Below, one piece after another: positions 9,643-44,766 of a DNA stretch of 64,000 nucleotides. The translations under genes were made by a program, and so were the position numbers. Numbering within the stretch: the first letter of the stretch is position 1; the number at the start of each line of letters is the position of its first letter. Source of the stretch: Prochlorococcus sp. AG-679-M23 (GTDB taxonomy: Bacteria > Cyanobacteriota > Cyanobacteriia > PCC-6307 > Cyanobiaceae); contig QCUR01000003.1 of assembly GCA_003208875.1 (NCBI GenBank), positions 128,001 to 192,000 on the forward strand. Reading direction: 5' to 3'. The notes under the pieces were generated by a model. The model saw nothing but the letters and a program-made list of their open reading frames with translations. It was not told the DNA's origin and ran no database searches.

Positions 9643-9790
9643 TTGAAAAAATTTATAGATAAATTAGTCAATGAATCATCTTCTTGTAATATAGAGTTTA
9701 CTTAACCAATCATGGATAAGTTAACCATAATCGTTTCGATTATTCACTATAGTTTCTAAATATCCTTAATTGCTTGCTTACTAAAAAAAT

Positions 9791-10852
9791 ATGCTTAATT
9801 TAATAAAGAAGAATTTAAATATAAAAAGTGGAATTGCATTAATTGTTTTAGCAGCTTTTTTTGTCTTTTTAAGTAATTCTTTTAAGAAAAACAAATCAAA
9901 AGACATATCCAACTTTGTAGTTTCCGTTGAAAAGGGAATTCTTTCTGAATCAATTAACACTACTGGAGAAGTAAAGGCTACTAGAACAAGCAATATTGGT
10001 CCAAGAAAGCAAGGAATACTAGAAGAAATTAAAGTAGAAGAAGGTGATCTCGTAGAAAAGGGCCAAATTTTGGCTACTCTCGATGATGAAGATTTCATCT
10101 ATAAGCTTGAAGAACTTGAATTAAATTTAAAAAAACAAAAATCTGAATATTTAAGAAGAGAATTTTTATTCAAAGAAGGAGCAGTTAGTAAAGAGGATTA
10201 TGAAAGCTATAAAAACAAGTACAACACAAGCGAAGCAAAATTTAGTGATGCAAAAGCTGAAAAAGATTTTTATTCTATAAAAGCTCCATACCCAGGGAAA
10301 ATAACAGCTAAATATGCAGAGATAGGTTCGTACGTTACACCTAGTTCAAATTTAAGTTCGGACTCTAAAGCTAAAAACTTTATTTTTGAATTATCAGAAG
10401 GTCTTGAAATTATTGCCAAAGTTCCAGAGAGTGATATAGGAAGGATAAAAACAGGTCAAGAAGCCTCTGTAAGGATAGAAGCTTATCCCTCAAATAAATA
10501 CAGAGCAATAGTTAAAAAAATAGCCGAAAGGGCAGTAAAAGATAATAATGTAACTTCATTCGAAGTAACCTTGAAATTCAAAGAAATCTCTGAGGAAATA
10601 AAAATTGGTATGACCGCTGACCTTGAATTTAAAGTTAAAAGTAGTGAAGAAAAAATCTTAGTTCCGACAGTTTCGATTGTCACCGAAAAAGGTGAAAAAG
10701 GTGTCTTAAAAGTAGATAAAAATAATGCTCCTAAATTTGAAAAGATAGAAATAGGTATTAGTAGCGGCAATAAAACTTCAATAATTGATGGTTTAAAACC
10801 AGGAGAACAAATTTTTATTGATATTCCACCTTGGGCTAATAAAAGAAAATGA
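9791..10852 (+). CDS. Efflux transporter periplasmic adaptor (HlyD/MFP family)
   Basis: N-terminal TM, lipoyl-like VEEGDLVEKGQ and IKAPYPG, coiled coil. Confidence 0.9.
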   Translation: MLNLIKKNLNIKSGIALIVLAAFFVFLSNSFKKNKSKDISNFVVSVEKGILSESINTTGEVKATRTSNIGPRKQGILEEIKVEEGDLVEKGQILATLDDEDFIYKLEELELNLKKQKSEYLRREFLFKEGAVSKEDYESYKNKYNTSEAKFSDAKAEKDFYSIKAPYPGKITAKYAEIGSYVTPSSNLSSDSKAKNFIFELSEGLEIIAKVPESDIGRIKTGQEASVRIEAYPSNKYRAIVKKIAERAVKDNNVTSFEVTLKFKEISEEIKIGMTADLEFKVKSSEEKILVPTVSIVTEKGEKGVLKVDKNNAPKFEKIEIGISSGNKTSIIDGLKPGEQIFIDIPPWANKRK

Positions 10853-31393: not shown

Positions 31394-32923
31394 ATGGAAT
31401 TAATAGAAAAACTACAACCTATTAAAAAGCCCTTAATGGTTTTAGGTACATCTAGCGGGGCAGGTAAATCTTTAACAGTTACGGCCATAGGCAGGATTCT
31501 TAAAAATTCAGGAGAAAAACCAATACCTTTTAAAGGCCAAAATATGAGTAACAATGCATGGGTTGATTGGAATGGCGGAGAGATGGCATTTTCTCAAGCT
31601 TTACAAGCATTTGCTTGCGGGATAATTCCTTCTTCGGAGATGAATCCTATCCTATTAAAACCACAAGGGAATTCAACTAGTGAAGTCATTCATTTAGGAA
31701 GAAGTATGGGTATCACAACAGCAAAAGATTACTACAAAGATTGGTTTTCCTCTGGATGGGAAGTAATTAAAGAAAGTTTGAATTCAATATATGAACGACA
31801 CCCAAATTGTCGTTTAATTATTGAGGGGGCAGGAAGTCCTGTAGAGATGAATTTAATTCACAGAGACCTTACGAACTTAAGAGTTGCAAAGTATTTAAAT
31901 GCGAATTGCATTTTAGTAACTGATATCGAAAGAGGAGGCGTATTTGCTCAAATAATAGGAACTCTTGAGTTAATGAAACCGGAAGAAAGAAAACTCATTA
32001 AAGGTATATTAATAAACAGATTTAGAGGGGACCTTTCATTATTTGAAGAAGGTAAAAAATGGATAGAAAACAAAACAAAAATCCCTGTTTTAGGAATAAT
32101 TCCTTGGTTAAATGATAAATTTCCTCCAGAGGATTCTTTAGATTTATTAGAAAAAAAATCATCTGTAACCAACCCTGAAATAAAGGTTGGAATTATCAAA
32201 TTGCCATCTATAAGTAACTTTTCAGATTTTGATCCATTAGAAAATGAAGAATCAATATTAATCAAATGGGTAATGGAATCTCAAAATTTAAATCAATTTG
32301 ATTTTCTTATTATTCCTGGAAGTAAACAGACTATTCAAGATCAACAATTTCTTAGAGATTCTGGTCTATCAAAAGATATAAAAAATTATTCAAAGAATAA
32401 AGGTAATATTTTTGGAATTTGCGGAGGTTTACAAATGTTAGGAACAATTCTTGAAGACCCATTTTTTAAAGAAGGATCAAAAATCAATTTAGAGAAATCA
32501 ATTAATGGAATTGGATTACTCCCTTTAAAAACAACTTTCCTTCAAAAAAAGATAACAAGGCAAATAAATTCTGAGTCAATTTGGCCGCAAGTTACAGAAA
32601 TCAACGGGTTTGAGATACATAACGGGGTAACTGAATTAGATAATAGTCAAGATACTTTTAAAATAAAACCTATTTTTAAGGATTTAGATCTTGGTTGGTA
32701 TAAAGAAAATATTCAAGGAGGGACTATTGCAGGTACATATATTCATGGAATCTTTGAAAATGATTACTGGCGAGATCACTATTTAAATTTAATTAGAAAA
32801 GGGAAAAACTTACCTTTATTAGACAAGAGAACAAGATCTTATAAAATGAAACGGGAAAACATTATTGATAATCTCGCAAATGAATTTAAAAAAAATTTTA
32901 ATATTTCATCATTGTTAAATTGA
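31394..32923 (+). CDS. cobQ: Cobyric acid synthase
   Basis: GTSSGAGKS, PFKGQNMSNN, EGAGSP.E.NL, GICGGLQMLG and GTYIHG motifs. Confidence 0.97.
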   Translation: MELIEKLQPIKKPLMVLGTSSGAGKSLTVTAIGRILKNSGEKPIPFKGQNMSNNAWVDWNGGEMAFSQALQAFACGIIPSSEMNPILLKPQGNSTSEVIHLGRSMGITTAKDYYKDWFSSGWEVIKESLNSIYERHPNCRLIIEGAGSPVEMNLIHRDLTNLRVAKYLNANCILVTDIERGGVFAQIIGTLELMKPEERKLIKGILINRFRGDLSLFEEGKKWIENKTKIPVLGIIPWLNDKFPPEDSLDLLEKKSSVTNPEIKVGIIKLPSISNFSDFDPLENEESILIKWVMESQNLNQFDFLIIPGSKQTIQDQQFLRDSGLSKDIKNYSKNKGNIFGICGGLQMLGTILEDPFFKEGSKINLEKSINGIGLLPLKTTFLQKKITRQINSESIWPQVTEINGFEIHNGVTELDNSQDTFKIKPIFKDLDLGWYKENIQGGTIAGTYIHGIFENDYWRDHYLNLIRKGKNLPLLDKRTRSYKMKRENIIDNLANEFKKNFNISSLLN

Positions 32924-33171
32924 AACAATCAAAAATTAAAATTATATGGCCAAATAACATCGAGACATATGCCTCAGAAGGAGACGATTGGTTTTCAATT
33001 GCTGAAAAGGTAGGTTTTGAAATTCCAACTGGATGTTTAACGGGGAGTTGTGGAGCTTGTGAAATAGATGTTAATGGCGAAACGGTGAGAGCTTGTATAA
33101 GCAATATTCAAAGTAAAAAAGATTGTTCATTAAGCGTTTCTTTTACTACTGACCCTTTCTGGGAAAATTAA
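32920..33171 (+). CDS. 2Fe-2S ferredoxin-like protein
   Basis: IPTGCLTGSCGACE...RAC. Confidence 0.88.
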   Translation: MKQSKIKIIWPNNIETYASEGDDWFSIAEKVGFEIPTGCLTGSCGACEIDVNGETVRACISNIQSKKDCSLSVSFTTDPFWEN

Positions 33172-33209: not shown

Positions 33210-33221
33210 ACGGAGAGGGTG
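33210..33221. repeat. att-like core copy 1 (distal island boundary)
   Basis: ACGGAGAGGGTG, identical to 44630-44641 at the tRNA-Ser 3' end. Confidence 0.9.
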
Positions 33222-33289
33222 AATTACATCACACACCATATAGGTAGATATTGGAATACATGGGACTCATTTTTGAGTAGTAAAGGCAT

Positions 33290-33306
33290 ATCCACCAACA
33301 TATCCA
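33290..33306. repeat. ATCCACCAACA arm-like motif at the cassette A left end
   Basis: ATCCACCAACATATCCA, starting 79 bp from the CGGAG core. Confidence 0.75.
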
Positions 33307-33372
33307 AGAAAACATTATTGGTATGAATAAGAATACTTTGGACGATAATGGAAAAAAAAATATTGAGTTTGC

Positions 33373-33467
33373 AAAAAAAAACCCCTATTTCTAGAGGTTT
33401 TTTTCTGGTTTTACTGAATCAAGTGTTTCCTTGTTTCCACTGTTTCAGTGAAACCTCTCCTACACAC
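33373..33467 (-). ncRNA. yfr2: Yfr2-family sRNA
   Basis: Minus strand: 5' GTGTGTAGGAG leader, hairpin with GGAAACAAGGAAACA in the loop, terminator hairpin plus U9; TAATAT -10 box upstream. Confidence 0.85.
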
Positions 33468-33568
33468 ATACATATATTAGATCATAAAAATTTTTTTCGT
33501 GAAGGGGGTGAGTAATATTACTTAATTGTCACATTTACCAGTTTCGGCCTTTAATACTTAATTGCATT

Positions 33569-33656
33569 AAAAAACACCCTAATTCTCAAGAATCAGAGCG
33601 TTAATATCAGAAATTAGTGTGTGAGGAGTTTCTAATGTTATTAATCTAATAGAAAA
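33569..33656 (-). ncRNA. Yfr1/Yfr10-like sRNA
   Basis: ACTCCTCACAC (33629-33619) between a 5' hairpin (TTTCTA..TAGAAA) and an imperfect 3' stem ending in U6; ends approximate. Confidence 0.7.
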
Positions 33657-33682
33657 GATCTCAATTCTGTGTAGTGTTAACA

Positions 33683-33901
33683 CTATTTCTTTTCCCAAAA
33701 TAGATAAAGATTTGAAAACTGATTTTTAGTATCTACTACTGCAGTGCTTGTTGAGATTAACTTCCAACCGGCAGAATTACGTTTTCTCATAATTGCTGCA
33801 ATCTCATTTTCTTGTCTTTGAGTATTTGCATTGCCTACTGCGTAATAGATATCAAGATCATTTTCTACATATGACATATTTAAATGTGCTGGTTTATTCA
33901 A
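33683..33901 (-). CDS. Small hypothetical protein
   Basis: 72-aa ORF with ...GWKLIS...LYLFWEK; true start may be an internal Met. Confidence 0.65.
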   Translation of the reverse strand: MNKPAHLNMSYVENDLDIYYAVGNANTQRQENEIAAIMRKRNSAGWKLISTSTAVVDTKNQFSNLYLFWEKK

Positions 33902-34323
33902 AGTTAATAATACTCAATCTTTCATCGATACTGAAATGGATTCGATAGGGTTATTAGAAATAAGTATTGTATGGTTTTACCTTCACCTCAAATTGCAATT
34001 GGATTATTGCTTATAAGTATTGGAATCGTAGTCACCTTTGATATCAAAATTGATTTATTTAAAGGTAAAGAGTAAAAGACAAAAGTTGGATATCTGGCAA
34101 AATGATTATATTAATTTGTTCAAAGAATAATCTTGTCAATTAAAGAACGCAATTACGATAATGATGGAACAGATCCATCAGAAGAATATTTTAGAAAGAA
34201 GAAAAAAGATAATGATGATGATACCTACTTCCCCTTAGAAGAATCAGAACCACCACATTATTAAGAACAGTAGAAAATTTATTGACAGATTCTTTAAAAT
34301 TAAAAAAATAAAAAAATTTAAAT

Positions 34324-34728
34324 ATGACTGAACAAAGGAAAATAGAGAAATTTGGAGTCGGGAATTTGTATCCTGATATTCATCCACCAGAATTTTCATT
34401 CTTTAAAAAAAAATGTATAGATGTAGCAATTGGATATGATGATGGTTTTACTTTCACTCCTAAATTTGGGAATTTTAAAGAAACTGAAGATATTTTTGAT
34501 TACCTAAAACAATATCTTGAAGATAAAGAATTAGAAAAATTAGATATTCGTTTTGATACCTTAAAAACTTGTATATACCAAATAAATCCTGAGACATTAG
34601 AACTTGGAGAATTATTGGAATGTGAAGGAAGTGATGTTAAATATTTTGAATGGAATAAACAAACTAAAAGTTTTGAAGAGGTTGAATCAAATTCACTAAG
34701 TGATGAAGAAGAAGAATATTTTCACTAA
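34324..34728 (+). CDS. Acidic hypothetical protein
   Basis: 134-aa ORF with ATG start. Confidence 0.7.
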   Translation: MTEQRKIEKFGVGNLYPDIHPPEFSFFKKKCIDVAIGYDDGFTFTPKFGNFKETEDIFDYLKQYLEDKELEKLDIRFDTLKTCIYQINPETLELGELLECEGSDVKYFEWNKQTKSFEEVESNSLSDEEEEYFH

Positions 34729-34985
34729 GTAATGATAATTCATATTTCCCTTCAGAAGAAACAGAGCAAGTTGAGACATTAATAAAATGAATAAAGAGCA
34801 TAATTATGAAGAAGGATTATTTAATTACGTTGTTTTGAAGGAAGAAAAGGAAGTGATCTTTTATTTACATAATCCCTATCCAGATTGCTTAAAAATTCCA
34901 GATATAATGAAACAAAGGTTTCCTAGTGATTCAAGAGCATAGTTGTAAATTCTTTGGATGATTTCAAAAAGTATGGAGCAAAAAG

Positions 34986-35168
34986 TTGAGCACTAAATGG
35001 GATGACACTTCATGGCAGAAAGAGTTCTTGAATATGAAGGCACATTCGCCTTCAGATGCCAAACTCTTAATGGGAGGTGTAAAAGGATTGAAAGGTGCTT
35101 GGCGTTTAGGTGTTCTGCACGTTGAATACGAAAGACTGAAGAAAGCACAAGAGCAGCAACAACAATGA
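34986..35168 (+). CDS. Small hypothetical protein
   Basis: 60 aa; GGAG upstream; similar to the next ORF. Confidence 0.65.
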   Translation: MSTKWDDTSWQKEFLNMKAHSPSDAKLLMGGVKGLKGAWRLGVLHVEYERLKKAQEQQQQ

Positions 35169-35332
35169 AAGAAGAAACAAATTGGAAAAAAGAATTACTA
35201 GAAAGTAAGAAGTTCAATAATAAATTTTCAAAAAATATATTAGAAAATGGTGCAAAGAATTATATGCAAGAAATCTATATAGGATATATGTATACCCGAT
35301 GGAGAAAAATTAGAGAGAAATCTATACTATAA
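35165..35332 (+). CDS. Small hypothetical protein (55 aa), probable paralogue of the preceding ORF, not in the track
   Basis: ATGA overlap; MKEETNWKKELLESKKFNNKFSKNILENGAKNYMQEIYIGYMYTRWRKIREKSIL*. Confidence 0.6.
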   Translation: MKEETNWKKELLESKKFNNKFSKNILENGAKNYMQEIYIGYMYTRWRKIREKSIL

Positions 35333-35514
35333 GCATTACCATAAGTACCTACCACATCCCAAAAAGCATTCCACAACATTTTGATGGTGGTTATAGCGTT
35401 AATTTCAAAATGAGAATATAAAACTTTAAATCTATATAAAAACAACTATCCTGTATTTACAGGCATTTTAAAGGATTAATTGTCACAAAAAAAGGTATAA
35501 GGATCTAAAAATAT

Positions 35515-35527
35515 ACGGAGAGGGTGG
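35515..35527. repeat. att-like core copy 2
   Basis: ACGGAGAGGGTGG, a 13-bp match to the tRNA-Ser end. Confidence 0.9.
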
Positions 35528-35602
35528 ACATAGAATTCAATCTAGAATTCCAGTGTAGACCTACTCTGACCACAGTTTAGTTTAGTAATTCATATGAAAC
35601 CT

Positions 35603-35620
35603 TGAGACAACCTAGAGACA
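35603..35620. repeat. Cassette B left arm-like repeat
   Basis: TGAGACAACCTAGAGACA; 17/18 identical to 43174-43191. Confidence 0.8.
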
Positions 35621-35846
35621 TTTTAGTTTTTATTACTTAATCGATGGATTTAATTTATTGACTACAAATATGGGTCTTCATCACATAGTTATTTCAACTG
35701 ATTTAGAAGCAAAGAGTATAAAAAGAATTTCAACTGAGAATAATAGTGACCATGATGGAATAAGTTGTTTAATTAATTTTTAAAAGTTAACCAATGAAAA
35801 TTAATATGGCACAATAAATATGATTTAGGAAATCCAAAAAATTATT

Positions 35847-36197
35847 GTGGATACTGCTGATAAACTTTCGATTCTTCAAGAGAGCGTAAACGCTTTCTTC
35901 ATTAAATTTTTTGATGGAATGTATCCAGAGAGAGTAGACAGAGATCCTGATTTAGTTAAGTTAAAACGAATTGGAAATCTCAACCAATTCAATGGAATTG
36001 ATAAGGATTTCCCTGATTTTGATATTAAAATGGATATCACGAAAGCATTTACTCATATTATTGAACACGGTGATGGAATTGAAATGCTTAAGGAAGAAAA
36101 TGTTCCATTTGAAGATAGTGTTGAAAGATTAGTTTTGGAAGAACTTACAAATACTGAGAATAGATATGGATATGATTTCAATGATGATGTTGAATAA
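35847..36197 (+). CDS. Acidic hypothetical protein
   Basis: 116-aa ORF, GTG start, abutting the next gene. Confidence 0.7.
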   Translation: MDTADKLSILQESVNAFFIKFFDGMYPERVDRDPDLVKLKRIGNLNQFNGIDKDFPDFDIKMDITKAFTHIIEHGDGIEMLKEENVPFEDSVERLVLEELTNTENRYGYDFNDDVE

Positions 36198-36545
36198 ATG
36201 AAAAAACTATTTCTTCTAATTTTAATATTTGGTTTTAATACTCCTGTAAATGCAGAACAATATCAAAGGCACAAATATACTTGCCCAGAATCTCAAAGTG
36301 AATGTAATGAAGGAGAAATAGCAGCAATTAAATTAGTAAATGACACTTATTGGGAAATGCTTTCAGAGAGAATCAAGGAAAATAAACATTATAAGTATCC
36401 TTGGTATTGGGTTTACAAAAAGGGGGAGTGTAAATATTCTGTCGCTGCGAAGGAAGATATGCCAAAGCATACAGTCACTATGGAATGGATTGATGTTGAT
36501 ATTTGCGAAAAAACCACTAAATTGTTGGATCTAAGACGCAGATGA
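36198..36545 (+). CDS. Small secreted protein with four Cys
   Basis: Signal peptide MKKLFLLILIFGFNTPVNA. Confidence 0.75.
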   Translation: MKKLFLLILIFGFNTPVNAEQYQRHKYTCPESQSECNEGEIAAIKLVNDTYWEMLSERIKENKHYKYPWYWVYKKGECKYSVAAKEDMPKHTVTMEWIDVDICEKTTKLLDLRRR

Positions 36546-36625
36546 AAATTAAAAAAAATATTCTCTCTAAGATTGCTAATCGATCATTATCCCAATTGGG
36601 TTCTTTTCTCATTGATTAAGACTAA

Positions 36626-39600
36626 TTAACTTGCAACTAATTCTTCTCCTAGAGTTTCTGCTTGTTGTAGAACAGTCTCAACTGCAGTAATTTGTTCATC
36701 TGGTGGATACTTATATCTCTTCAAAAGTGTTTTGATTTTAAGTCTCAGTTTTGCCCTGACATTTTCTTTATATTGCCAGTCAATATTTGCATCTCTCCTC
36801 ATAATTTCTGCAAGTTCTCTTGCCATATTTGCAAGAACTTCTTCTTTCAAAAGTTTATGAGCAGATGGGTTGTCTGCTAAAGCATCATAGAAAGATTGTT
36901 CTGCAGAAGATAAACCTAATGCAATCCCACGTTCTAAATCTTCTCTGAATTTCTTTGCCATTTCAATTAGTTCTTCTATTACTTGTGCTGCTTCTATCGC
37001 CCTGTTTTCATATTTTTGCAATGATTTAGAAAGCATTTCACTAAAGTTTTTCTGCTTCACAACATTTGTTCTGAACTTACTTTTTACTTCATCATTTATG
37101 AGTTTTTGAAGCAATTCAACTGCTAAATTTTTCTGTGGGATCTTACTTACTTCTGATAAGAATTGATCTGACATGATACTTATATCTGGATTCTTGAGAC
37201 CAGCAACTTTGAATACATCAGTTATTCCATCAGAGACTAATGATTCAGATAGAAGTTGTTGTAATTCAAACCCATAAGTTTGAGGTGGACGTACAACAAT
37301 ATCTCCTTTTATTAGCATTGCTCTTATTGCTTGAAGGAATGCTATTTCAGGACTATGTTCAAGTGCTTCATCAGTTGTTCCACAAAGAGCAAATGCTTTC
37401 GTTATTTTTAGAACTGTATTGCAGAATCTTTTCTTCCCATCATCTATCTCGAGAATATGGTCAAGACAATTTGGAATAATGTCTAATGCTTTTCCTTTCT
37501 CTCTAAAGTGACCCCATTCAACAGGATGTAAGAGATCTTCTGCTATTTGAATTTGTTCAAGAAGTACACGAACTGCTTCACTGGTATCAAGTTTTATTTC
37601 CCCTTTTCCGTTTGCTGCTGTGTAAGTAGCAAGTGCCTCTTTGAGTTGTGGAGCAATACCTATGTAATCAACAATCAGTCCACCTGGTTTATCCTTGAAA
37701 ACTCTATTGACTCTTGCAATTGCTTGAGCAAGATTTGCTTCTTTCATTGGTTTATCTACGTACATAGTTGCTAAACAAGGTGCATCAAAACCCGTCAACC
37801 ACATATCTCTTACAAGAACGATTTTGAGTGGATCATTTGGATCTTTGAATCTATTCTCTAAATCTTTTTTTTGTTGTTTGCTTGTGTGATGAGGTTGAAG
37901 AAGTTCCGACTCAGAAGCAGATGCAGTCATGACAACTTTTACAGAACCTTTCATATGATCCGAATCTTTCCATGCTGGTTTGAGATCGACTATCTCGTTG
38001 TAAAGACGTGCACAGATTTCTCTACTCATTCCAACAATCAATGCTTTTCCAGGTTGCGTTTTAGATCTTTGTTCATAGTGGGCAATAAGATCTTTTGCTA
38101 CTTGTTTGAGTCGAGGTTCTGCTCCTACTAATGCTTCTAATGCTGCCCATCTACTTTTCGCCTTTTCAGTAGAAGAAATATCATCTTCATTTTCAAAAAT
38201 TTCATCAAACCTACTATCTAAACTCGGAGTACTGCTTTCTTTGAGTTTTAGTTTTGCTAGTCTTGACTCGTAATAAATTGGAACTGTTGCTCCATCATCT
38301 ACTGCTTGCTGAATATCATAAATAGAAACGTAATGACCAAAGACTGCTTGTGTATCTCGATCATCTTGAGAAATTGGAGTTCCTGTAAATGCCAAGAAAG
38401 TTGCGTTTGGAAGAGCATCCCTCAGTCCTTTTGCTAATCCATATTTCACTTCTCCTGTCTTTGAATCAATTCTTCCTTTGAAACCATATTGAGTTCGATG
38501 TGCCTCATCACAAATCACCACAATATTTTTTCTATCAGTCAATGCAGGGAATTTTTCTTCGTCCTTTTCTGTTGCAAATTTTTGAATGGTTGTAAAAATA
38601 ATTCCTCCACTAGGTCTGTTATCTAATAGATCTCTTAGATCTTTTCTTGACTCTGCTTGCTTAGGTTTTTCTCCCAATAAATCTCCAGATCCAGTAAAGA
38701 CACCAAATAACTGACCATCAAGATCTTGCCTATCAGTGACCATTACTAAGGTGGGATTTTGAAGTCTTTTATCGGTTAGAAGTTTTCCTGCTAAACATGC
38801 CATCTCGATACTTTTTCCTGCACCTTGCGTATGCCAAACAACTCCACCTTTGCGATCACCATCTGGTTTACTTGCCTCTATGACTCTTTCGACTGCAGTA
38901 TTGACTGCATAGAACTGATGATAAGCAGCAATCTTTTTGATAATTTCTTTTTCTTCTTCAAAGACACAGAATGAACGTATGAAATCTAATAATCTTTTTT
39001 TATCGAATAATCCTCTAACTAAGGTTTCTAATTGTTTGAACTTTCCAAGTGGATCTAAATCTTGTTCTTTTTCAATAACTCTCCATTGCTGGAATCTTTC
39101 CTCATTCGCAGAAAGCGATCCTACTTTTGCATAAGTACCATCACTAATAACTAATAGAACATTTGGAGTAAATAAATCAGGAATATCTACTTTATAAGTT
39201 CTTAGTTGATTGAAAGCGTCCCAGATATCAGTTTTTTCATTTGCTGGATTCTTGAGTTCAATTACTGCAATTGGGAGACCATTTATATAAACAACAACAT
39301 CAGGTCTACGATTATTTTTTGGACCACTAATTGCTAATTGATTGACGACTAACCAATCATTTTTATCAGGATTATCAAAATCAATAATTCTTAGTCGGAT
39401 TCCAATTTCTTGGTTACCTTCCATGTAAGAAATAGGAAGTCCTTTGGTCATCCATATGTGAAATTGACGATTCGAAGCAACTAATCCAGGAATATTTGGA
39501 TTGGTTATTTGTAGAACTGCTGAATCAATAGTTTTACTAGGAACTTCAGGATTCAATTTTATAAGTGCAGACTTCAAACGAACTGTTAGATAAACTTGTC

Positions 39601-39727
39601 TGAAATCAATTCTTTCAGGAGAGTCTCCATCAGGAGCAATATTTGGACCATAAACATATTGATATCCGAGATCTTCAAACCATTCAATTGAAGTTTCTTC
39701 TATTAGATTTTCATCTATCAATGACAT
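36626..39727 (-). CDS. hsdR: Type I restriction endonuclease R subunit
   Basis: RPD...IELK nuclease motif, WHTQGAGKS Walker A, DEAHR, FTGTP, LTGFDAP, QAIARVNR. Confidence 0.97.
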   Translation of the reverse strand: MSLIDENLIEETSIEWFEDLGYQYVYGPNIAPDGDSPERIDFRQVYLTVRLKSALIKLNPEVPSKTIDSAVLQITNPNIPGLVASNRQFHIWMTKGLPISYMEGNQEIGIRLRIIDFDNPDKNDWLVVNQLAISGPKNNRRPDVVVYINGLPIAVIELKNPANEKTDIWDAFNQLRTYKVDIPDLFTPNVLLVISDGTYAKVGSLSANEERFQQWRVIEKEQDLDPLGKFKQLETLVRGLFDKKRLLDFIRSFCVFEEEKEIIKKIAAYHQFYAVNTAVERVIEASKPDGDRKGGVVWHTQGAGKSIEMACLAGKLLTDKRLQNPTLVMVTDRQDLDGQLFGVFTGSGDLLGEKPKQAESRKDLRDLLDNRPSGGIIFTTIQKFATEKDEEKFPALTDRKNIVVICDEAHRTQYGFKGRIDSKTGEVKYGLAKGLRDALPNATFLAFTGTPISQDDRDTQAVFGHYVSIYDIQQAVDDGATVPIYYESRLAKLKLKESSTPSLDSRFDEIFENEDDISSTEKAKSRWAALEALVGAEPRLKQVAKDLIAHYEQRSKTQPGKALIVGMSREICARLYNEIVDLKPAWKDSDHMKGSVKVVMTASASESELLQPHHTSKQQKKDLENRFKDPNDPLKIVLVRDMWLTGFDAPCLATMYVDKPMKEANLAQAIARVNRVFKDKPGGLIVDYIGIAPQLKEALATYTAANGKGEIKLDTSEAVRVLLEQIQIAEDLLHPVEWGHFREKGKALDIIPNCLDHILEIDDGKKRFCNTVLKITKAFALCGTTDEALEHSPEIAFLQAIRAMLIKGDIVVRPPQTYGFELQQLLSESLVSDGITDVFKVAGLKNPDISIMSDQFLSEVSKIPQKNLAVELLQKLINDEVKSKFRTNVVKQKNFSEMLSKSLQKYENRAIEAAQVIEELIEMAKKFREDLERGIALGLSSAEQSFYDALADNPSAHKLLKEEVLANMARELAEIMRRDANIDWQYKENVRAKLRLKIKTLLKRYKYPPDEQITAVETVLQQAETLGEELVAS

Positions 39728-41040
39728 TAGATACCAACCTCATCAATCATTCTTTCTGCATCAGAAATTATGAGTTCTCCCGAAACTAGTCTTGGAAGCA
39801 ATGTATCTCTAAGTTCTTCTAGCAACATATTAGAAACTATATTCGAAGTTCTTTTTTTGAATAATAATAAGGCAATTTTTTCGTAGCGTTCGCATATTTT
39901 ATTAGGAGGCACAATAATCTTTAATTTTCTACAATCTTCTCTTCTTAGAAATCCTCTTGCACTTCCAGAAACCCATGAAGTAATTTCTTTGACCTTATTA
40001 CTAAAGGAATAGTAAGTAAACATTTGGTCAATACTATTATTTTTTGATCTAATTCTCCACATATTTTGATTTAGTAAAGATGGAACAATATCACTTGAAA
40101 CCAAACCTATTTTGCCTAAAGTTGCCCCAACCATTACAAATAACGTATCACCTTCAAGTAATTCAAATTTTCTAAATTCATCAAATTTATCTTTCTCAAT
40201 AAAGACAGCATCCTTTTTATTGATAAAAGAATCTTCTCCAATGTTTAGTGTTCTAACTATAAAAGATCCTTTTGTAGTGTAATCCTTACTTTTGAAAGCA
40301 TATCCGCCACTCAAATCTGCAATTTCATCTAATTCTTTTACTTGCCATCCTTTTGGAATCTCTCCTAATTCAGAATCTTCAAATGAATCTGGAAATAAAT
40401 TACTAATCTCGTCAGGTAATCCAGTTGAGAGACCTTCTACTTTTGCTTTTACAGGATCAAAATCTATAAACCAAGATTTGAAAAGTGCTTTTGCTATTTC
40501 TTCAAGAGTTTCATTAGTTTTTTGATTGATTTCAATTTTTTTATCAAGGGTTCCAATGATATGTGCAATTGCTTTTTGTTCATGGAGAGGAGGATATTCA
40601 AATTCAAATCTTCCTAAAACCTTTGCATTTGCTCCTGCTTGTGCAGAACCAGTTTTTGAACCCCTTACGAAATTCCACCATGAGGAACTTCTCATACATC
40701 GCCATACATATGAAGGATCCACAATTTGTTTATTTACGCGAAATCTTATGAGGTAAGAAGCAAAAACCACAAAAGATTCTCCTTGAAATAAATAATTTTC
40801 TCCAGTACTATTTCCTGTTCTCGCAACAACAATATCTCCATCGTTCAAAAGATATTTTGATTTTGAGGATGAATCTATTTCGCAGAATGGAACATCTCTC
40901 CATTGCACAAAACCATTTTGAATATCTGTAATTCTTAGGAATTTTGTGCCAGTATTTTCATCTGTTGCACTTGCTGTAAAACCATACTCGATTTTTTCTG
41001 AGACGTCAGCAAGTGAAGTTTTTTTCCAATTACTATTCAT
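39727..41040 (-). CDS. hsdS: Type I restriction specificity subunit
   Basis: Two TRDs; PPL.EQKAIA..LDKKIE, central ALFKSWF...ELGEIPKGW, terminal LRDTLLPRLVSGEL. Confidence 0.96.
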   Translation of the reverse strand: MNSNWKKTSLADVSEKIEYGFTASATDENTGTKFLRITDIQNGFVQWRDVPFCEIDSSSKSKYLLNDGDIVVARTGNSTGENYLFQGESFVVFASYLIRFRVNKQIVDPSYVWRCMRSSSWWNFVRGSKTGSAQAGANAKVLGRFEFEYPPLHEQKAIAHIIGTLDKKIEINQKTNETLEEIAKALFKSWFIDFDPVKAKVEGLSTGLPDEISNLFPDSFEDSELGEIPKGWQVKELDEIADLSGGYAFKSKDYTTKGSFIVRTLNIGEDSFINKKDAVFIEKDKFDEFRKFELLEGDTLFVMVGATLGKIGLVSSDIVPSLLNQNMWRIRSKNNSIDQMFTYYSFSNKVKEITSWVSGSARGFLRREDCRKLKIIVPPNKICERYEKIALLLFKKRTSNIVSNMLLEELRDTLLPRLVSGELIISDAERMIDEVGI

Positions 41041-42607
41041 ATCCTATACGATTCAAATTCTCAGCAATTTTTTGATCTAATTTTGCTCCCTCTTCCTGTT
41101 GTGTTTTGAGTAAAGAGGTAAGTCTTTTCATCTTTTCATCAAAAGGTTCACCATCATCCTCTTCTTCTGGAGCACCAACATATCGTCCAGGAGTTAGAGC
41201 AAAACTATTCTTTTCAATCTCTTCAAACTTTGCGTTGTAGCAGAAACCTGCAACGTCCTCATACTCATCATCTTTACGCCAAGATTGGACAGTATCTGCA
41301 ATCTTAGAAATATCTCCATCAGTGAGAATTCTCTCAACTCGATTTTTCATTGTTCCCATTTGGCGAGCATCAATGAATAAAGTTTCTCCTTTTCTATCTC
41401 TACCTCTTTGAGTTTTATCGTTAGTCAAAAACCATAAACAAACTGGAATTTGGGTATTCAAAAATAATTGCCCAGGCAATGCAACCATAACTTCAACCAC
41501 ATCTTTTTTGACCATCTCTTCTCGAATATTCCCCTCATTACTTGTATTAGAACTCATAGATCCATTTGCAAGAACTACTCCTGCTTGACCACCTGGTCTC
41601 AACTTCCAAAGCATATGTTGTAACCATGCATAGTTAGCATTTCCTGCTGGTGGTCTTCCATATGCCCAGCGAACATCACTTTCATATTTTTCCCCACCCC
41701 AATCAGAAATATTGAAGGGTGGATTAGCGAGTATGTAATCAAATTTTTGATCAAGATGCTGATCTCTTGCAAAAGTATCTGCAGGTTCTTGTCCTAAATC
41801 GGCAGAAAAACCCCTAATTGCAAGGTTTATTGCTGCTAATCGCCAAGTAGTAGGATTACTTTCTTGACCATAAATTGAAATAGCATCTCTTTCTCCTCCA
41901 TGTGCTTCTATAAATCTTTCACTTTGAACAAACATTCCACCTGATCCACAACATGGATCATAAACTCGACCTTTATCAGGAGATAAAACTGCAACTAATG
42001 TTTTTACAACGTGAGAAGGAGTATAGAATTGTCCTCCTTTTTTTCCTTCAGCACTTGCAAATTGACCCAAAAAGTATTCAAAAACTTCACCTAAAACATC
42101 TCCCGAATTTTCTTGCTCAGTGAAACCAACGGTTGAAAAAAGATCTATTAGTTGTCCTAATATTCCAAATTCTAATTGAGCAGTACTAAATCTTTTATCT
42201 AACTTTCCCCTTAGGTCTGAGTTTTCATTCTCAATCGAAACCAATGCTTTATCAATACGCTGACCAATATCAGGTTGTTTTGCTTGATTTCTAAGTTCTT
42301 CCCATCGGGCATCTTTTGGAACCCAAAACACATTTGCTTGAGTGTAATAATCTCTATCTTCTAATGCCTCTTGATGATCTTTAGGATCATCTCCAAGAAA
42401 ATAATCTGAGTCTGGGGTGCTAACTATTTCTAATACTTTTTTCTGATGTTCAACAAAGGTATCCGAAACAAATTTTAGAAATATCAATGGAAGAACAAGA
42501 TTCTTATATTCAGCAGCATCCATTTGAGCACGTAATTTATCTGCACTTGCCCAAAGAACTGCTTTGAAATCTTTTGGAGTATCTTCTTTCTTTTTAGGAA
42601 TGACCAA
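41033..42607 (-). CDS. hsdM: Type I DNA methyltransferase M subunit (m6A)
   Basis: LW..ADKLR, GQFYTP, YDPCCGSGGMF (motif I) and NPPF (motif IV). Confidence 0.97.
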   Translation of the reverse strand: MVIPKKKEDTPKDFKAVLWASADKLRAQMDAAEYKNLVLPLIFLKFVSDTFVEHQKKVLEIVSTPDSDYFLGDDPKDHQEALEDRDYYTQANVFWVPKDARWEELRNQAKQPDIGQRIDKALVSIENENSDLRGKLDKRFSTAQLEFGILGQLIDLFSTVGFTEQENSGDVLGEVFEYFLGQFASAEGKKGGQFYTPSHVVKTLVAVLSPDKGRVYDPCCGSGGMFVQSERFIEAHGGERDAISIYGQESNPTTWRLAAINLAIRGFSADLGQEPADTFARDQHLDQKFDYILANPPFNISDWGGEKYESDVRWAYGRPPAGNANYAWLQHMLWKLRPGGQAGVVLANGSMSSNTSNEGNIREEMVKKDVVEVMVALPGQLFLNTQIPVCLWFLTNDKTQRGRDRKGETLFIDARQMGTMKNRVERILTDGDISKIADTVQSWRKDDEYEDVAGFCYNAKFEEIEKNSFALTPGRYVGAPEEEDDGEPFDEKMKRLTSLLKTQQEEGAKLDQKIAENLNRIGYE

Positions 42608-42719
42608 TAAAAAATAATTGCTCTTATTTTATACCTAATTGCTATTTTGTTTGATTCAATGCTTACTTTCTGACATGCGATTTGTTATTTTTTTAATTAG
42701 TTAAAGAGCGAATAAAATC

Positions 42720-42914
42720 ATGATTACTAATAAGAGATACCAAACGTTATTAATGCTTGCGACAACAGGCAAACCTTTAAATAAAGACGCTACAGAAGAA
42801 GAAAAGAAATTCTACGAAGAATGTAAACATGACTATAAAGTCATGAAAGAAACCGCAAAGAAAAAGGGCATAAAGAATCCAATTTTAGAAATACCAATGG
42901 AAGTTGATTTTTAG
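42720..42914 (+). CDS. Small hypothetical protein
   Basis: 64-aa ORF with ATG start. Confidence 0.65.
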   Translation: MITNKRYQTLLMLATTGKPLNKDATEEEKKFYEECKHDYKVMKETAKKKGIKNPILEIPMEVDF

Positions 42915-42921
42915 AGAAATA

Positions 42922-43113
42922 ATGCAACCACCAAAGACCTCTGAAGAATTAACAGAAATGTATCCCGATCTAGAACCTTGGCAAAGGGATGAACTAGAAA
43001 TTTGGCACAGAGGATGGATTACTAAATTAATGACTGGAGATGCAACATCAAAAGAATATAATGCTGCAATACCTCCTCATCCAGATCCTCATCACCCTGA
43101 AGATGATGAGTAA
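42922..43113 (+). CDS. Small acidic hypothetical protein
   Basis: MQPPKTSEELTEMYPDLEPWQRDELE...; ATG 7 bp after the previous stop. Confidence 0.65.
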   Translation: MQPPKTSEELTEMYPDLEPWQRDELEIWHRGWITKLMTGDATSKEYNAAIPPHPDPHHPEDDE

Positions 43114-43146
43114 AATAAGGTTTGAAAATTATTTGTATCTCTAAAA

Positions 43147-43191
43147 AACCTAGAGACTTTAAAAAAATAACCCTGAGACAACATAGAGACA
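43147..43191. repeat. Cassette B right arm-like repeats
   Basis: AACCTAGAGAC (43147-43157) and TGAGACAACATAGAGACA (43174-43191). Confidence 0.8.
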
Positions 43192-43314
43192 AGAGTGGTC
43201 ATTGTGGTAACTTATAAAAGTCAAACGGGTTAAAGAATACCTAAAACAACTCAGTCATAACAGTGAATCTGGACATTCTGACCAATTCTGACTACATCTT
43301 ATTTGTATAAAAAT

Positions 43315-43326
43315 ACGGAGAGGGTG
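43315..43326. repeat. att-like core copy 3
   Basis: ACGGAGAGGGTG. Confidence 0.9.
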
Positions 43327-43396
43327 AAATTCACTTTCGTGTTTTAACGGCAGATACAGGAACATCTGGGATGGTTAAAGGGATGTAGAGGCAAAT

Positions 43397-43420
43397 ATCC
43401 ACCAACACATCCACCAACAC
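43397..43420. repeat. Cassette C left arm-like tandem
   Basis: ATCCACCAACAC x2, starting 81 bp from the core. Confidence 0.85.
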
Positions 43421-43529
43421 CAAAAACTTGCCTATATTGGACGATATTGGATTGATAAATCTGTATATAAATTACAATTTTATATATATTTTTTTCTAGG
43501 GATATAATTATCAAAATATTTAATAAAAA

Positions 43530-44417
43530 ATGAAAACACTCTATTCATTTTTAGTTTCATTATTAGTAATACCTTTTTCAACAACTATAGGACTAGGGTC
43601 TTTATATTTTTATAGTGAACTTGCAATTTTCACTAGAGAAGCAAAAGCAACAAACTGGAATGCATTTAATCTAAATTTTAAAAAAGGGTTGAGATATCTT
43701 GATAAGGGTGAATATCAAAAGGCACTTGATGCTTACAACAGAGTAATTAAAATTTATGCACTTGATGGACCTAGTTTCTACAACAGAGGCACAGCATATT
43801 TAGGATTAGGAAAATACAATGAGGCAATTAAAGACTTTTTAAAATCAATTAAATACGATAATGAGAAAGGCAACCAATATGCTTATAACAATATTGCAGT
43901 CGCATACGATAATCTTGGAGATTACAAAAATGCCCTTAAATATATCAACTTAGCAATAGATGCGTACCCTAAATTTGGACTTTATTTTCACAATCGTGCT
44001 TACTATAATTTGGAGTTAGAAAATTTCAAAGATGCAGAAAAAGATTATGCGAAAGCAAAAGAAGTTTACTTAAAATATAAAAGTACAAGAATGATTGGAG
44101 ATTGTCCAAAAGTTAAGAATCTAGAGCATTGCAAACTAGATTCTTGGTTCTATAACGATTTAGGTTATGCAAAAGAGAGTTTAGGAGATTTTAGAGGAGC
44201 ATTGGTTAATTACGATAAAGCAATAGAAATAAATTATCCAAATCCAAATGAAGAAAAATTTATCATATTCAATAATCGGGGAAATACAAGATATGAATTA
44301 GGTGATGAGAAGGGTGCTTGTAAAGATTACAAGTTTGCTGCATCAATAGGTGACGCGGAAGGAGTTGAGTGGTTGAAATCAAAGGATGGTAAATGGTGCG
44401 GAGAAATGGAATTTTAA
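43530..44417 (+). CDS. Tetratricopeptide-repeat protein with N-terminal hydrophobic segment
   Basis: Repeated YNRG.AY..LG.Y..A..D TPR units; C-terminal GAC.DY..AA..G. Confidence 0.9.
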   Translation: MKTLYSFLVSLLVIPFSTTIGLGSLYFYSELAIFTREAKATNWNAFNLNFKKGLRYLDKGEYQKALDAYNRVIKIYALDGPSFYNRGTAYLGLGKYNEAIKDFLKSIKYDNEKGNQYAYNNIAVAYDNLGDYKNALKYINLAIDAYPKFGLYFHNRAYYNLELENFKDAEKDYAKAKEVYLKYKSTRMIGDCPKVKNLEHCKLDSWFYNDLGYAKESLGDFRGALVNYDKAIEINYPNPNEEKFIIFNNRGNTRYELGDEKGACKDYKFAASIGDAEGVEWLKSKDGKWCGEMEF

Positions 44418-44432
44418 AACATAAAAAGATTT

Positions 44433-44520
44433 ATCCACCAACACATACTTTCTCCATCAAATATCCACCAACACATCAAAAAATATCCACCAACATATCC
44501 ACCAACATATCCACCAACAC
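44433..44520. repeat. Cassette C right arm-like repeat cluster
   Basis: ATCCACCAACA at 44433, 44463, 44485, 44497 and 44509; the last three in 12-bp tandem. Confidence 0.9.
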
Positions 44521-44630
44521 ATTTATGCATATACTGGTAAATGTTGGATTATATAGGACAAACAACTTCTCTAAAATCCCATTTTGACCGCATTTTTGCC
44601 AACATAGCACTTCACAGGATGATAATTAAA

Positions 44631-44715
44631 CGGAGAGGGTGGGATTCGAACCCACGAATAGTTACCTATTAAACGATTTCGAATCGTTCGCTTTCGACCA
44701 CTCAGCCACCTCTCC
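44631..44715 (-). tRNA. tRNA-Ser (anticodon CGA)
   Basis: GGAGAGG/CCTCTCC acceptor stem, AACGA-TTCGAAA-TCGTT anticodon arm, long variable arm, GTGGG-TTCGAAT-CCCAC T arm; CCA not encoded. Confidence 0.97.
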
Positions 44716-44766
44716 GTAATTAAATAATATATAAAATTTATAAATTCGTTTTTTTTATCTTATTTA

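Follow-up and report, generated by a model that had tools for sequence, protein, structure and literature searches.

The window analyzed here is a 64,000-nucleotide stretch of the genome of Prochlorococcus sp. AG-679-M23 (contig QCUR01000003.1, positions 128,001 to 192,000), and it contains an island of three stacked inserts, cassettes A, B and C, between a ferredoxin-like gene and the 3′ end of a tRNA-Ser(CGA) gene. These cassettes probably retain both arms of the attachment sites (attP) of lambda/P4-type integrases of the tycheposon kind, with the short words near their ends representing arm-type sites and the cassettes themselves now being passengers. This view draws on the anatomy of the island, a fixed geometry and matched cassette ends in related genomes, an empty target site, relatives with integrases at the same core, and a link between word and integrase clade. 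The filling of Prochlorococcus genomic islands is only partly understood, and we know of no plasmids, conjugation or prophages in these organisms.

Organization of the island

The sole tRNA gene identified in the window by ARAGORN is a leftwards-oriented tRNA-Ser(CGA) gene at 44630–44716 (− strand), whose sequence was compared with those of the three other tRNA-Ser genes of the genome. The reverse complement of its last 11 bases, together with one base beyond, forms a 12-mer, ACGGAGAGGGTG, that we refer to as the core. Exact copies on the + strand are present at the tRNA 3′ end (44630–44641) and at three further positions: core copy 1 (33210–33221) is the outermost junction and adjoins the 3′ flank of the 2Fe-2S ferredoxin-like gene (32920–33171) that bounds the island on the side opposite the tRNA, and core copies 2 and 3 lie at 35515–35526 and 43315–43326. 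The four copies split the stretch from the ferredoxin-like gene to the tRNA into cassette A (33222–35514; 2.3 kb), cassette B (35527–43314; 7.8 kb) and cassette C (43327–44629; 1.3 kb). These are the only exact copies in the 1.65 Mb genome (31% G+C); with up to two mismatches allowed, the window contains eight matches against 0.95 expected, a number that none of 100 shuffles reaches. The last 25 bases of tRNA-Ser(TGA) are identical to those of tRNA-Ser(CGA) and are followed by CCA, and every junction in the window keeps CCGT. The integrated ends fit attachment-site (att) junctions at a tRNA 3′ end, with a short core at every junction and an empty target seen in a relative (L099; L and G numbers denote our loci and genomes).

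No integrase gene was found in cassettes A, B or C by Pfam, by open reading frame (ORF) family searches or by tblastn, and none of the three has an AlpA gene. The window has no match to the tyrosine recombinase profile PF00589, and the only PF00589 matches of the genome are on other contigs.

Words at the cassette ends

Each cassette carries short words at both ends, which we describe as a first word set and a tandem word, with distances at the tRNA-far end counted from the core. The far end of cassette C contains a first word set, ATACAGGAACATCTGGGATG, composed of ATACAGGAAC and ATCTGGGATG (43354–43373, + strand), the tandem word (ATCCACCAACAC)x2 with a period of 12 at +81 (43397–43420, + strand), and a second copy of the first word set, ATATTGGACGATATTGGATT, at 43434–43453. 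At its tRNA-near end are five copies of ATCCACCAACA on the + strand (44433–44520; starts at 44433, 44463, 44485, 44497 and 44509), followed by three words of the first set, ATACTGGTAA, ATGTTGGATT and ATATAGGACA (44531–44560, + strand), 70–100 bases before the tRNA core. The window has eight exact copies of ATCCACCAACA, all on the + strand, and these are also the only exact copies in the genome; with one mismatch allowed there are nine matches against 0.82 expected, and none of 100 shuffles reaches nine. Relatives show the same ATCCACCAACA cluster adjoining the tRNA.

Cassette B has different words. A direct repeat of TAGAATTC (two copies, 35530–35549) lies just before the first word set of the far end, GTGTAGACCTACTCTGACCA, composed of GTGTAGACCT and ACTCTGACCA (35553–35572, + strand), and the tandem word CCTTGAGACAA CCTAGAGACA follows at +85 with a period of 11 (35600–35620, + strand), including TGAGACAACCTAGAGACA at 35603–35620. 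The near arm contains three copies of this GAGACA word, CCTAGAGAC, CCCTGAGACA and CATAGAGACA (43149–43191, + strand), and three of the first set (TCTGGAC, TCTGACC and TCTGACT; 43267–43295, + strand), 20–48 bases before the core. The sequence GAGACAACMTAGAGACA is present at two places in the window (0.25 expected; two of 100 shuffles reach two), and these are also its only exact genomic copies, both within the island.

Cassette A is mixed. Its far-end first word set, ATATTGGAATACATGGGACT, composed of ATATTGGAAT and ACATGGGACT at about +37 (33248–33267, + strand), has a homologous stretch in 14 other arms of the same class, and in the arms of the class shared by A and C the first word set recurs at +120 to +140. 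The tandem-word slot (33290–33309, + strand) contains ATCCACCAACA at 33290–33300, and then a decayed second copy, ATATCCAAG. The tRNA-near arm (35348–35379, + strand) carries words of another class, CCTACCACAT (35348–35357) and TTCCACAACAT (35369–35379), which are similar to the CCACCACAT words found in L069 and in the integrase-bearing element L254.

A fixed arm geometry in related genomes

A search of 285 genomes of the genus finds the ATCCACCAACA tandem in 28 of them and the reversed control pattern in none. Twenty loci were chosen for the ATCCACCAACA word, each taken as 20 kb around the match (18 of the 20 stretches include the tRNA), and ten more Prochlorococcus loci were chosen by the tRNA alone and are hence unbiased for words. 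This tRNA-Ser is widely conserved, and the pattern used to choose the ten also matched loci from other phyla. Where both flanks are in the stretch the order is cobQ, the ferredoxin gene, a variable island of 2.7–13 kb, tRNA-Ser(CGA) and a solute-binding-protein gene.

The 31 loci surveyed contain 36 non-tRNA cores, 27 of which have a tandem 9-mer (at most one mismatch, period 9–14) starting between +70 and +100, 26 of them in the +80–89 bin; 20 of the 31 loci had been picked for ATCCACCAACA, and 11–12 of the positive cores carry other words. The same pattern is found at 79 of 2000 random positions (4%) in the same loci. At least ten different words fill the slot at about +80, and the nearer first word set changes along with them; at loci chosen by the tRNA the slot contains ATCCCACAACAC (L092), ACCCGCCAACA (L069), ATCCCACACTAC (L117) or a CCTAACAC-like word (L111). 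The two ends of a cassette match: of 22 cassettes, 17 carry their far-end word again in the near arm (mean 2.9 copies), compared with 63 of 401 cross-class pairs, and this holds for cassettes B and C of the window. At the empty site in L099 the ferredoxin flank runs directly into the tRNA and no words are present, which indicates that the words arrive with the inserts.

Several loci contain core-to-core units of 215–227 bp that lack cargo altogether (in oriented copies, L041 9919–10145, L048 9919–10145, L038 9896–10122, L111 9773–10011 and L092 about 9790–10011). They consist of only two arms that share one word pair; since far and near arms can share a pair in this way, the cargo of larger cassettes sits inside the word array. 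By their sequence these units appear to be natural minimal attP-like substrates. Smaller units also occur: in L035 (8244–8352, oriented) two cores 97 bases apart surround about five tandem copies of TGAACAGGTA, and L043 has a similar unit of 58 bases with CAGACAC x2.

An earlier sequence-only reading of this DNA had described two word codes in one end geometry, and every word and offset that it gave for A, B and C is present in the window. The counts at the 36 cores show that a fixed offset from the core also holds in relatives. The CGGAG pentamer from which it measured is uninformative alone (26 matches against 22 expected), the true common core being the 12-mer. Two clear classes do exist in the window, together with a mixed third, and two is an undercount for a slot filled by ten or more words. 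The words were read as arms from the tRNA-far ends alone; their presence on both sides of the core, with the same words at the near ends of C, beyond the range that this reading covered, and of B, strengthens that assignment. Cassette A resembles C at the far end through ATCCACCAACA and is otherwise not its twin, having a single exact copy and a near arm of another class. The 10-bp tandem placed at +37 is present as a loose repeat: an exact 6-mer repeat with a spacing of 9–12 between +18 and +68 is found at 9 of 39 distinct cores, compared with 4.7% of random windows, and the A and C halves share only about A-N-N-GGA.

The 31% G+C of the genome, the chance-level frequency of CGGAG and the looseness of the +37 tandem are what would be expected if the words were chance or low-complexity repeats of AT-rich DNA. 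This explanation has a negligible probability given the shuffle controls, the genome-wide uniqueness of core and words, the reversed pattern that is absent from all 285 genomes while the word itself is in 28, and the fixed offset across genomes, and for the core and the tandem words we regard it as refuted.

Integrases at the same core

A genus-wide scan with PF00589 (E ≤1e-8) has matches in 91 of the 285 genomes, from which fifteen long forms were retrieved, three of them (L219, L220 and L230) at tRNA-Ser(CGA); a profile built from nine integrases (A1) has 29 matches in 25 of the 285 and added two more elements with this core, L231 and L254. Five genomes (G212, G108, G084, G198 and G153) carry integrase-bearing elements at the core used by cassettes A, B and C. 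In L219 and L220 the gene for a 413-residue integrase adjoins the tRNA; TAGCAC/TGGCAC/TGTCAC forms the first word set, and TTTTACATGTG, the tandem word, begins at about +70. L230 has a 444-residue integrase gene beside the far arm, preceded by a 74-residue ORF, with TTGTCCAG as its first word set, ATCCCTGACAC at +82 and three more ATCCCTGACAC copies in the near arm. In L231 a core with one mismatch is followed by ATCACCAACAT x2 at +84, then an AlpA ORF and a 426-residue integrase gene; its word shares CACCAACA and the period of 12 with the word of cassettes A and C. L254 is a further integrase-bearing element at this core, with TTCCACCACAT-like words. The near-arm first word set of cassette B is homologous to the arm of L230.

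L230 and L231 thus have the same order of core, first word set, tandem word (at +82 and +84), AlpA-like ORF and integrase gene (int), and in L231 the AlpA-like ORF is preceded by a promoter-like TTGAC...TATAAT. The AlpA-like ORF of L231 matches PF05930 (45 bits) and that of L230 has a weak helix-turn-helix match only. The L219 integrase contains PF13356 (Arm-DNA-bind_3, 48.8 bits) as well as core-binding and catalytic domains. The integrases of L230, L231 and L254 are homologs by alignment (A1) and blastp, and those of L219 and L230 are about 25% identical. A 589-bp cassette in L051 that lacks an integrase bears the TGGCAC and TTTTACATGTG words of the integrase-bearing L219 element; integrase-less copies of an integrase-bearing code thus exist.

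Cores matching the 3′ ends of tRNA-Ser(GCT) and tRNA-Asn(GTT) are also followed by integrases of the same family (L246–L253, L255, L259, L260 and L262); the tRNA-Asn(GTT) gene of the AG-679-M23 genome is at G000:C1:124761–124834. The order there is again core, first word set, tandem word, promoter-like TTGACA...TATAAT, AlpA-like ORF and int.

Other recombinase genes were considered as candidates and rejected. The genus-wide scan places a 359-residue class beside tRNA-Thr and short forms of 190–220 residues in tRNA-Pro islands, and both were ruled out as they are not located here. The AG-679-M23 genome encodes a 386-residue protein with a weak PF00589 match (29.7 bits) between ferrochelatase and cobO/argB (G000:C4:163917–165077; L001 829–1986), the N-terminal 224 residues of which match no family; ORFs of mostly 389 residues with comparably weak matches are present in many other genomes of the genus. 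With its housekeeping gene context here, this homologue was set aside as a host helper because one protein cannot explain many word classes. A pair of ORFs by the near arm in L046, L049 and L052, considered as a broken integrase, looks like a methyltransferase and a membrane protein.

Correspondence between words and integrases

The integrases at the tRNA-Ser(CGA) core are polyphyletic and lie in both major branches of a quick maximum-likelihood tree, for which SH-aLRT values are the only support; they form four lineages each with its own word. Integrases with the same word fall in the same subclade of this tree for TCCCAACAACA (4 of 4), TTTTACATGTG (2 of 2) and TCCCAACAT (2 of 2), and for TCCCGACCAT there are two sisters and one member of unresolved position. 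Within the tRNA-Asn group, pairs with the same word are 82% identical over residues 1–105 and 74% over the rest, and pairs with different words 68% and 72%, respectively. L250 and L260, the words of which differ, are 93% identical over the rest of the protein and 69% in the N-terminal part. These comparisons suggest that the word goes with the subclade of the integrase and, for the tRNA-Asn group, with the N-terminal domain more than with the rest of the protein.

The sequence-only reading had proposed that different integrase specificities share one core and that the words act as a barcode for the helper that moves each cassette. Four lineages with a word each agree with the first part, with the qualification that no integrase with the exact words of the window was found. 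Motif class follows the clade of the adjacent integrase insofar as each multi-member word falls within one subclade, apart from the one TCCCGACCAT member and among few, related sequences. The barcode idea is thus partly supported, as a correspondence between word and subclade; that a helper would move the matching cassette is our extrapolation.

Alternatively, the tandem words could belong to a module for replication or transcription of the inserts, as its iterons or operator sites, and play no part in recombination. They are direct repeats with a period of 11–12 bases, four of the loci among the 20 that have ATCCACCAACA arms (L040, L042, L045 and L051) contain genes for DnaB-type helicases, and a promoter-like TTGACA...TATAAT follows directly downstream of the far-end words in the integrase-bearing elements. 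However, the words stand at a fixed distance from the core on both sides, persist in cassettes and 215-bp units that have no replication gene, and appear to track the N-terminal domain of the integrase, which in one relative contains a recognized arm-binding domain. We consider this origin very improbable.

Cassette contents and turnover

The cargo differs among the three cassettes. Cassette A has small ORFs without a Pfam family, among them two tandem paralogs (34986–35168 and 35165–35332) that match phrog_16908 and phrog_869, phage families of unknown function. Cassette B encodes a type I restriction-modification system identified by Pfam, with hsdR (36626–39727), hsdS (39727–41040) and hsdM (41033–42607) all on the − strand, as well as small ORFs at 35847–36197 and 36198–36545 and two small acidic ORFs of 64 and 69 residues (42720–42914 and 42904–43113) for which no family was found. 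No DNA-binding family is matched by the small ORFs of cassettes A and B. The single gene of cassette C encodes a TPR protein of 295 residues (Pfam; 43530–44417, + strand).

Related genomes contain different combinations of these units. In G074, the flanks of which are 93% identical to those of the window, cassette C is missing and a class B cassette adjoins the tRNA; cassette A is present (L210; 93% identity). L069, with a cobQ 98% identical, has cassette A and then a cassette of another class, and also lacks C. These differences indicate turnover of the array at the cores. In a single marine metagenome run (X2), three contigs go from core copy 2 (window 35527) straight into the tRNA body, so that strains with cassette A as the tRNA-nearest insert appear to exist in the sea, although as the contigs come from other strains the support is weak. 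Depth differences and joints with sides of fewer than 30 letters were not used as evidence for these contigs; one contig joining 33108 to 44630 (side 29) is a possible empty site in another strain and is too weak to count. In L041 (16275–18069; G077) cobQ and the ferredoxin gene are inverted and located beyond the tRNA and the solute-binding-protein gene, which points to an inversion of chromosomal DNA with a breakpoint at the island.

The class B cassettes of G044, G074 and G071 have only their ends in common with cassette B, with differing cargo between them; the proximal end (42714–43332; ~620 bases) is 91–93% identical in all three and the far arm (35507–35640) 93–96% identical in G044 and G074, and G044 shares one cassette B ORF at 83%. 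The two acidic ORFs (window 42714–43113) lie in the near arm region that keeps 91–93% DNA identity in these genomes despite the differing cargo, and may belong to the backbone of the element. In G128 (L045 14431–20000 with L212 1–720) a type I restriction operon ~85% identical to that of the window is inverted and located in a CCCCCACTAC-class cassette; cargo thus moves between arm classes.

These patterns bear on whether the cassettes are dead scars, which would have the same arm origin and be decaying leftovers with int deleted that were never moved by a helper and changed through homologous recombination or deletion between cores and words. The genome has no integrase of the family, the second copy of the word in cassette A is decayed, and 5 of 22 cassettes are without a matching near arm. 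The cargo-less units of L041, L048, L038 and L111 look like deletions between direct word repeats, and the inverted restriction operon of G128 speaks for ordinary recombination shuffling the cargo. However, the 11-base word is exact in 108 copies (with 26 more at one mismatch) across 35 loci, most of them chosen for the word, while the flanking cobQ is only ~79% identical. In L043 the TPR gene is 91% and the near arm 95% identical to those of cassette C, although cobQ there is only 79% identical, and the ends of class B are 91–96% identical in three genomes with different cargo. Such high identity of integrase-less cassettes and ends amid diverged flanks or cargo indicates recent lateral spread of integrase-less forms. 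In addition, no int pseudogene fragment was seen in the 35 island loci. We therefore judge the dead-scar explanation unlikely, though the least so of the alternatives.

Proposed mechanism

The proposed mechanism is that three circular inserts would have entered the last 12 bases of the tRNA-Ser(CGA) gene one after another, by recombination through lambda/P4-type (heterobivalent) tyrosine integrases of the tycheposon kind, leaving each cassette bounded by a copy of the core and in possession of both arms of its former attP. At the far end, the core would then be followed after about 25 bases by a loose first word set at +35 to +60 and by a tandem pair of a 10–12-base word at about +82; the tRNA-near end would have the word in two to five further copies, then the first word set and ~20 (B) to 70 (C) bases leading to the core. 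Most likely the integrase docks at the tandem word through its N-terminal arm-binding domain and an AlpA-type excision factor binds the first word set, although the two assignments could be reversed. Since element families have a common core and words of their own, the different integrase lineages would use a single chromosomal site and each assemble only on its own arms. Judged by the words, the closest type appears to be that of L231 for cassette C and the far end of A, that of L230 and L044 for B, and that of L254 and L069 for the near arm of A.

Since no integrase of the family is encoded in the genome, the cassettes are at present stranded passengers, any movement of which would require the entry of a matching helper into the cell. 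We infer such mobilization in trans from the near-identical integrase-less cassettes and arms that sit amid far more diverged flanks, and from the lack of int fragments in 35 loci; which protein would bind which word is likewise a prediction from sequence.

Several observations weigh against this interpretation. None of 105 island ORFs of at least 110 residues from 20 loci matched an integrase or recombinase family, and tblastn with 26 integrases of this family has no match in 35 island loci or in the genome of the window. No integrase with exactly ATCCACCAACAC or CCTWGAGACA was found among those of the genus, the nearest being ATCACCAACAT (L231) and ATCCCTGACAC (L230). Arms are mismatched or missing in cassette A and in two cassettes of relatives (L047 7253–10146 and L037 12371–16131), the first word set is only weakly repetitive, and the architecture is not uniform, with the L219/L220 integrase gene at the tRNA-near end and not at the far end. 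The link between word and clade comes from few, kindred sequences and a quick tree. The arms are also absent from the isolated phages and the IMG/VR data searched, which thus offer no vehicle: in distant blastn searches of isolated phages window 44400–44720 matched only tRNA-Ser genes and 43100–43470 matched nothing, and IMG/VR has no match to the ATCCACCAACA tandem or to the core plus arm start, with a class B 17-mer matching five loci that are all of unrelated composition and have neither core nor integrase. A metagenome scan with an over-degenerate word pattern gave one Prochlorococcus-like locus among 80 and none with an integrase.

If the cassettes are indeed passengers with retained arms, the island cargo, such as the restriction system and the TPR protein, sits in units with a full pair of recombination arms and no enzyme, and the sequence classes of these arms are many and follow integrase lineage. 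The mechanism would be a familiar one in unusually clear form. A more novel and more tentative possibility, which we regard as conceivable but somewhat improbable, is that Prochlorococcus islands are largely built of integrase-less, self-contained attP circles that form a passenger pool for any helper whose arm-binding domain reads their words, and that an N-terminal swap, as between L250 and L260, re-assigns the helper and leaves the tRNA target unchanged. This would amount to an integron-like gene-collecting system run by heterobivalent tyrosine integrases, with the flexible gene pool of one site partitioned among at least four helper lineages.

Comparison with known systems

Heterobivalent tyrosine integrases bind arm-type sites, such as P1, P2 and P′1–3 of lambda, and P4/HP1-type integrases have an N-terminal arm-binding domain. 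As in these systems, the island has short words on both sides of a short core, at distances of tens to about 190 bases, and a second tandem set nearer the core in the manner of Xis sites; among the relatives, the L219 integrase contains Arm-DNA-bind_3 and a small AlpA-type helix-turn-helix gene is located upstream of int. Unlike them, the window has DNA sites only, with many word classes for one chromosomal core; a cognate, element-encoded integrase with an N-terminal arm-binding domain is absent from window and genome and is present only in relatives.

Tycheposons integrate serially at tRNA 3′ ends, leaving partial tRNA copies between elements, and encode tRNA-specific tyrosine recombinases along with defense and niche cargo (Hackl et al., bioRxiv 10.1101/2020.12.28.424599). 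The parts of that preprint available to us list seven target genes (Pro-tgg, Ser-tga, Ala-ggc, Thr-ggt, Arg-tct, Met-cat and tmRNA) and explain integrase-less island material by imprecise excision that picks up flanking DNA; in its main text, as available, the terms 'arm' and 'direct repeat' do not appear. The cassettes resemble tycheposons in their genus-level host and in being integrated at a tRNA and flanked by full and partial tRNA copies. They differ in having no integrase of their own, nor the excisionase and replication genes that tycheposons often carry, so that they are not tycheposons by that definition and are at most derivatives or passengers, and in a target, Ser(CGA), that is outside the seven listed, as are the Ser(GCT) and Asn(GTT) targets of relatives; all three would add to the sites used by this integrase family. 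Since each cassette carries both attP arms, it also looks like an integrated circle of its own, unlike what the imprecise-excision account in these parts of the preprint describes.

The cis-mobilizable elements (CIMEs) of streptococci are att-flanked, lack recombination genes, are found in tandem at one tRNA or gene end, and are thought to be mobilized by a related element with a cognate integrase. Cassettes A, B and C are similarly bounded by attL- and attR-type sites and have no recombination or transfer genes. Unlike CIMEs, they have no conjugation context, the genome contains no resident helper, integrase-bearing elements at this site being found only in relatives (G212, G108, G084, G198 and G153), and several arm specificities share one core.

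Finally, the cassettes differ from those of integrons in that their recombination sites directly repeat a tRNA end and have long arms, where integrons have attC hairpins, and in having no adjacent IntI, the enzymes of the relatives being P4-type integrases. The likeness to integron cassettes is in their arrangement, as they are mostly promoter-poor units of one or a few genes located between recombination sites, with the newest beside the anchor.

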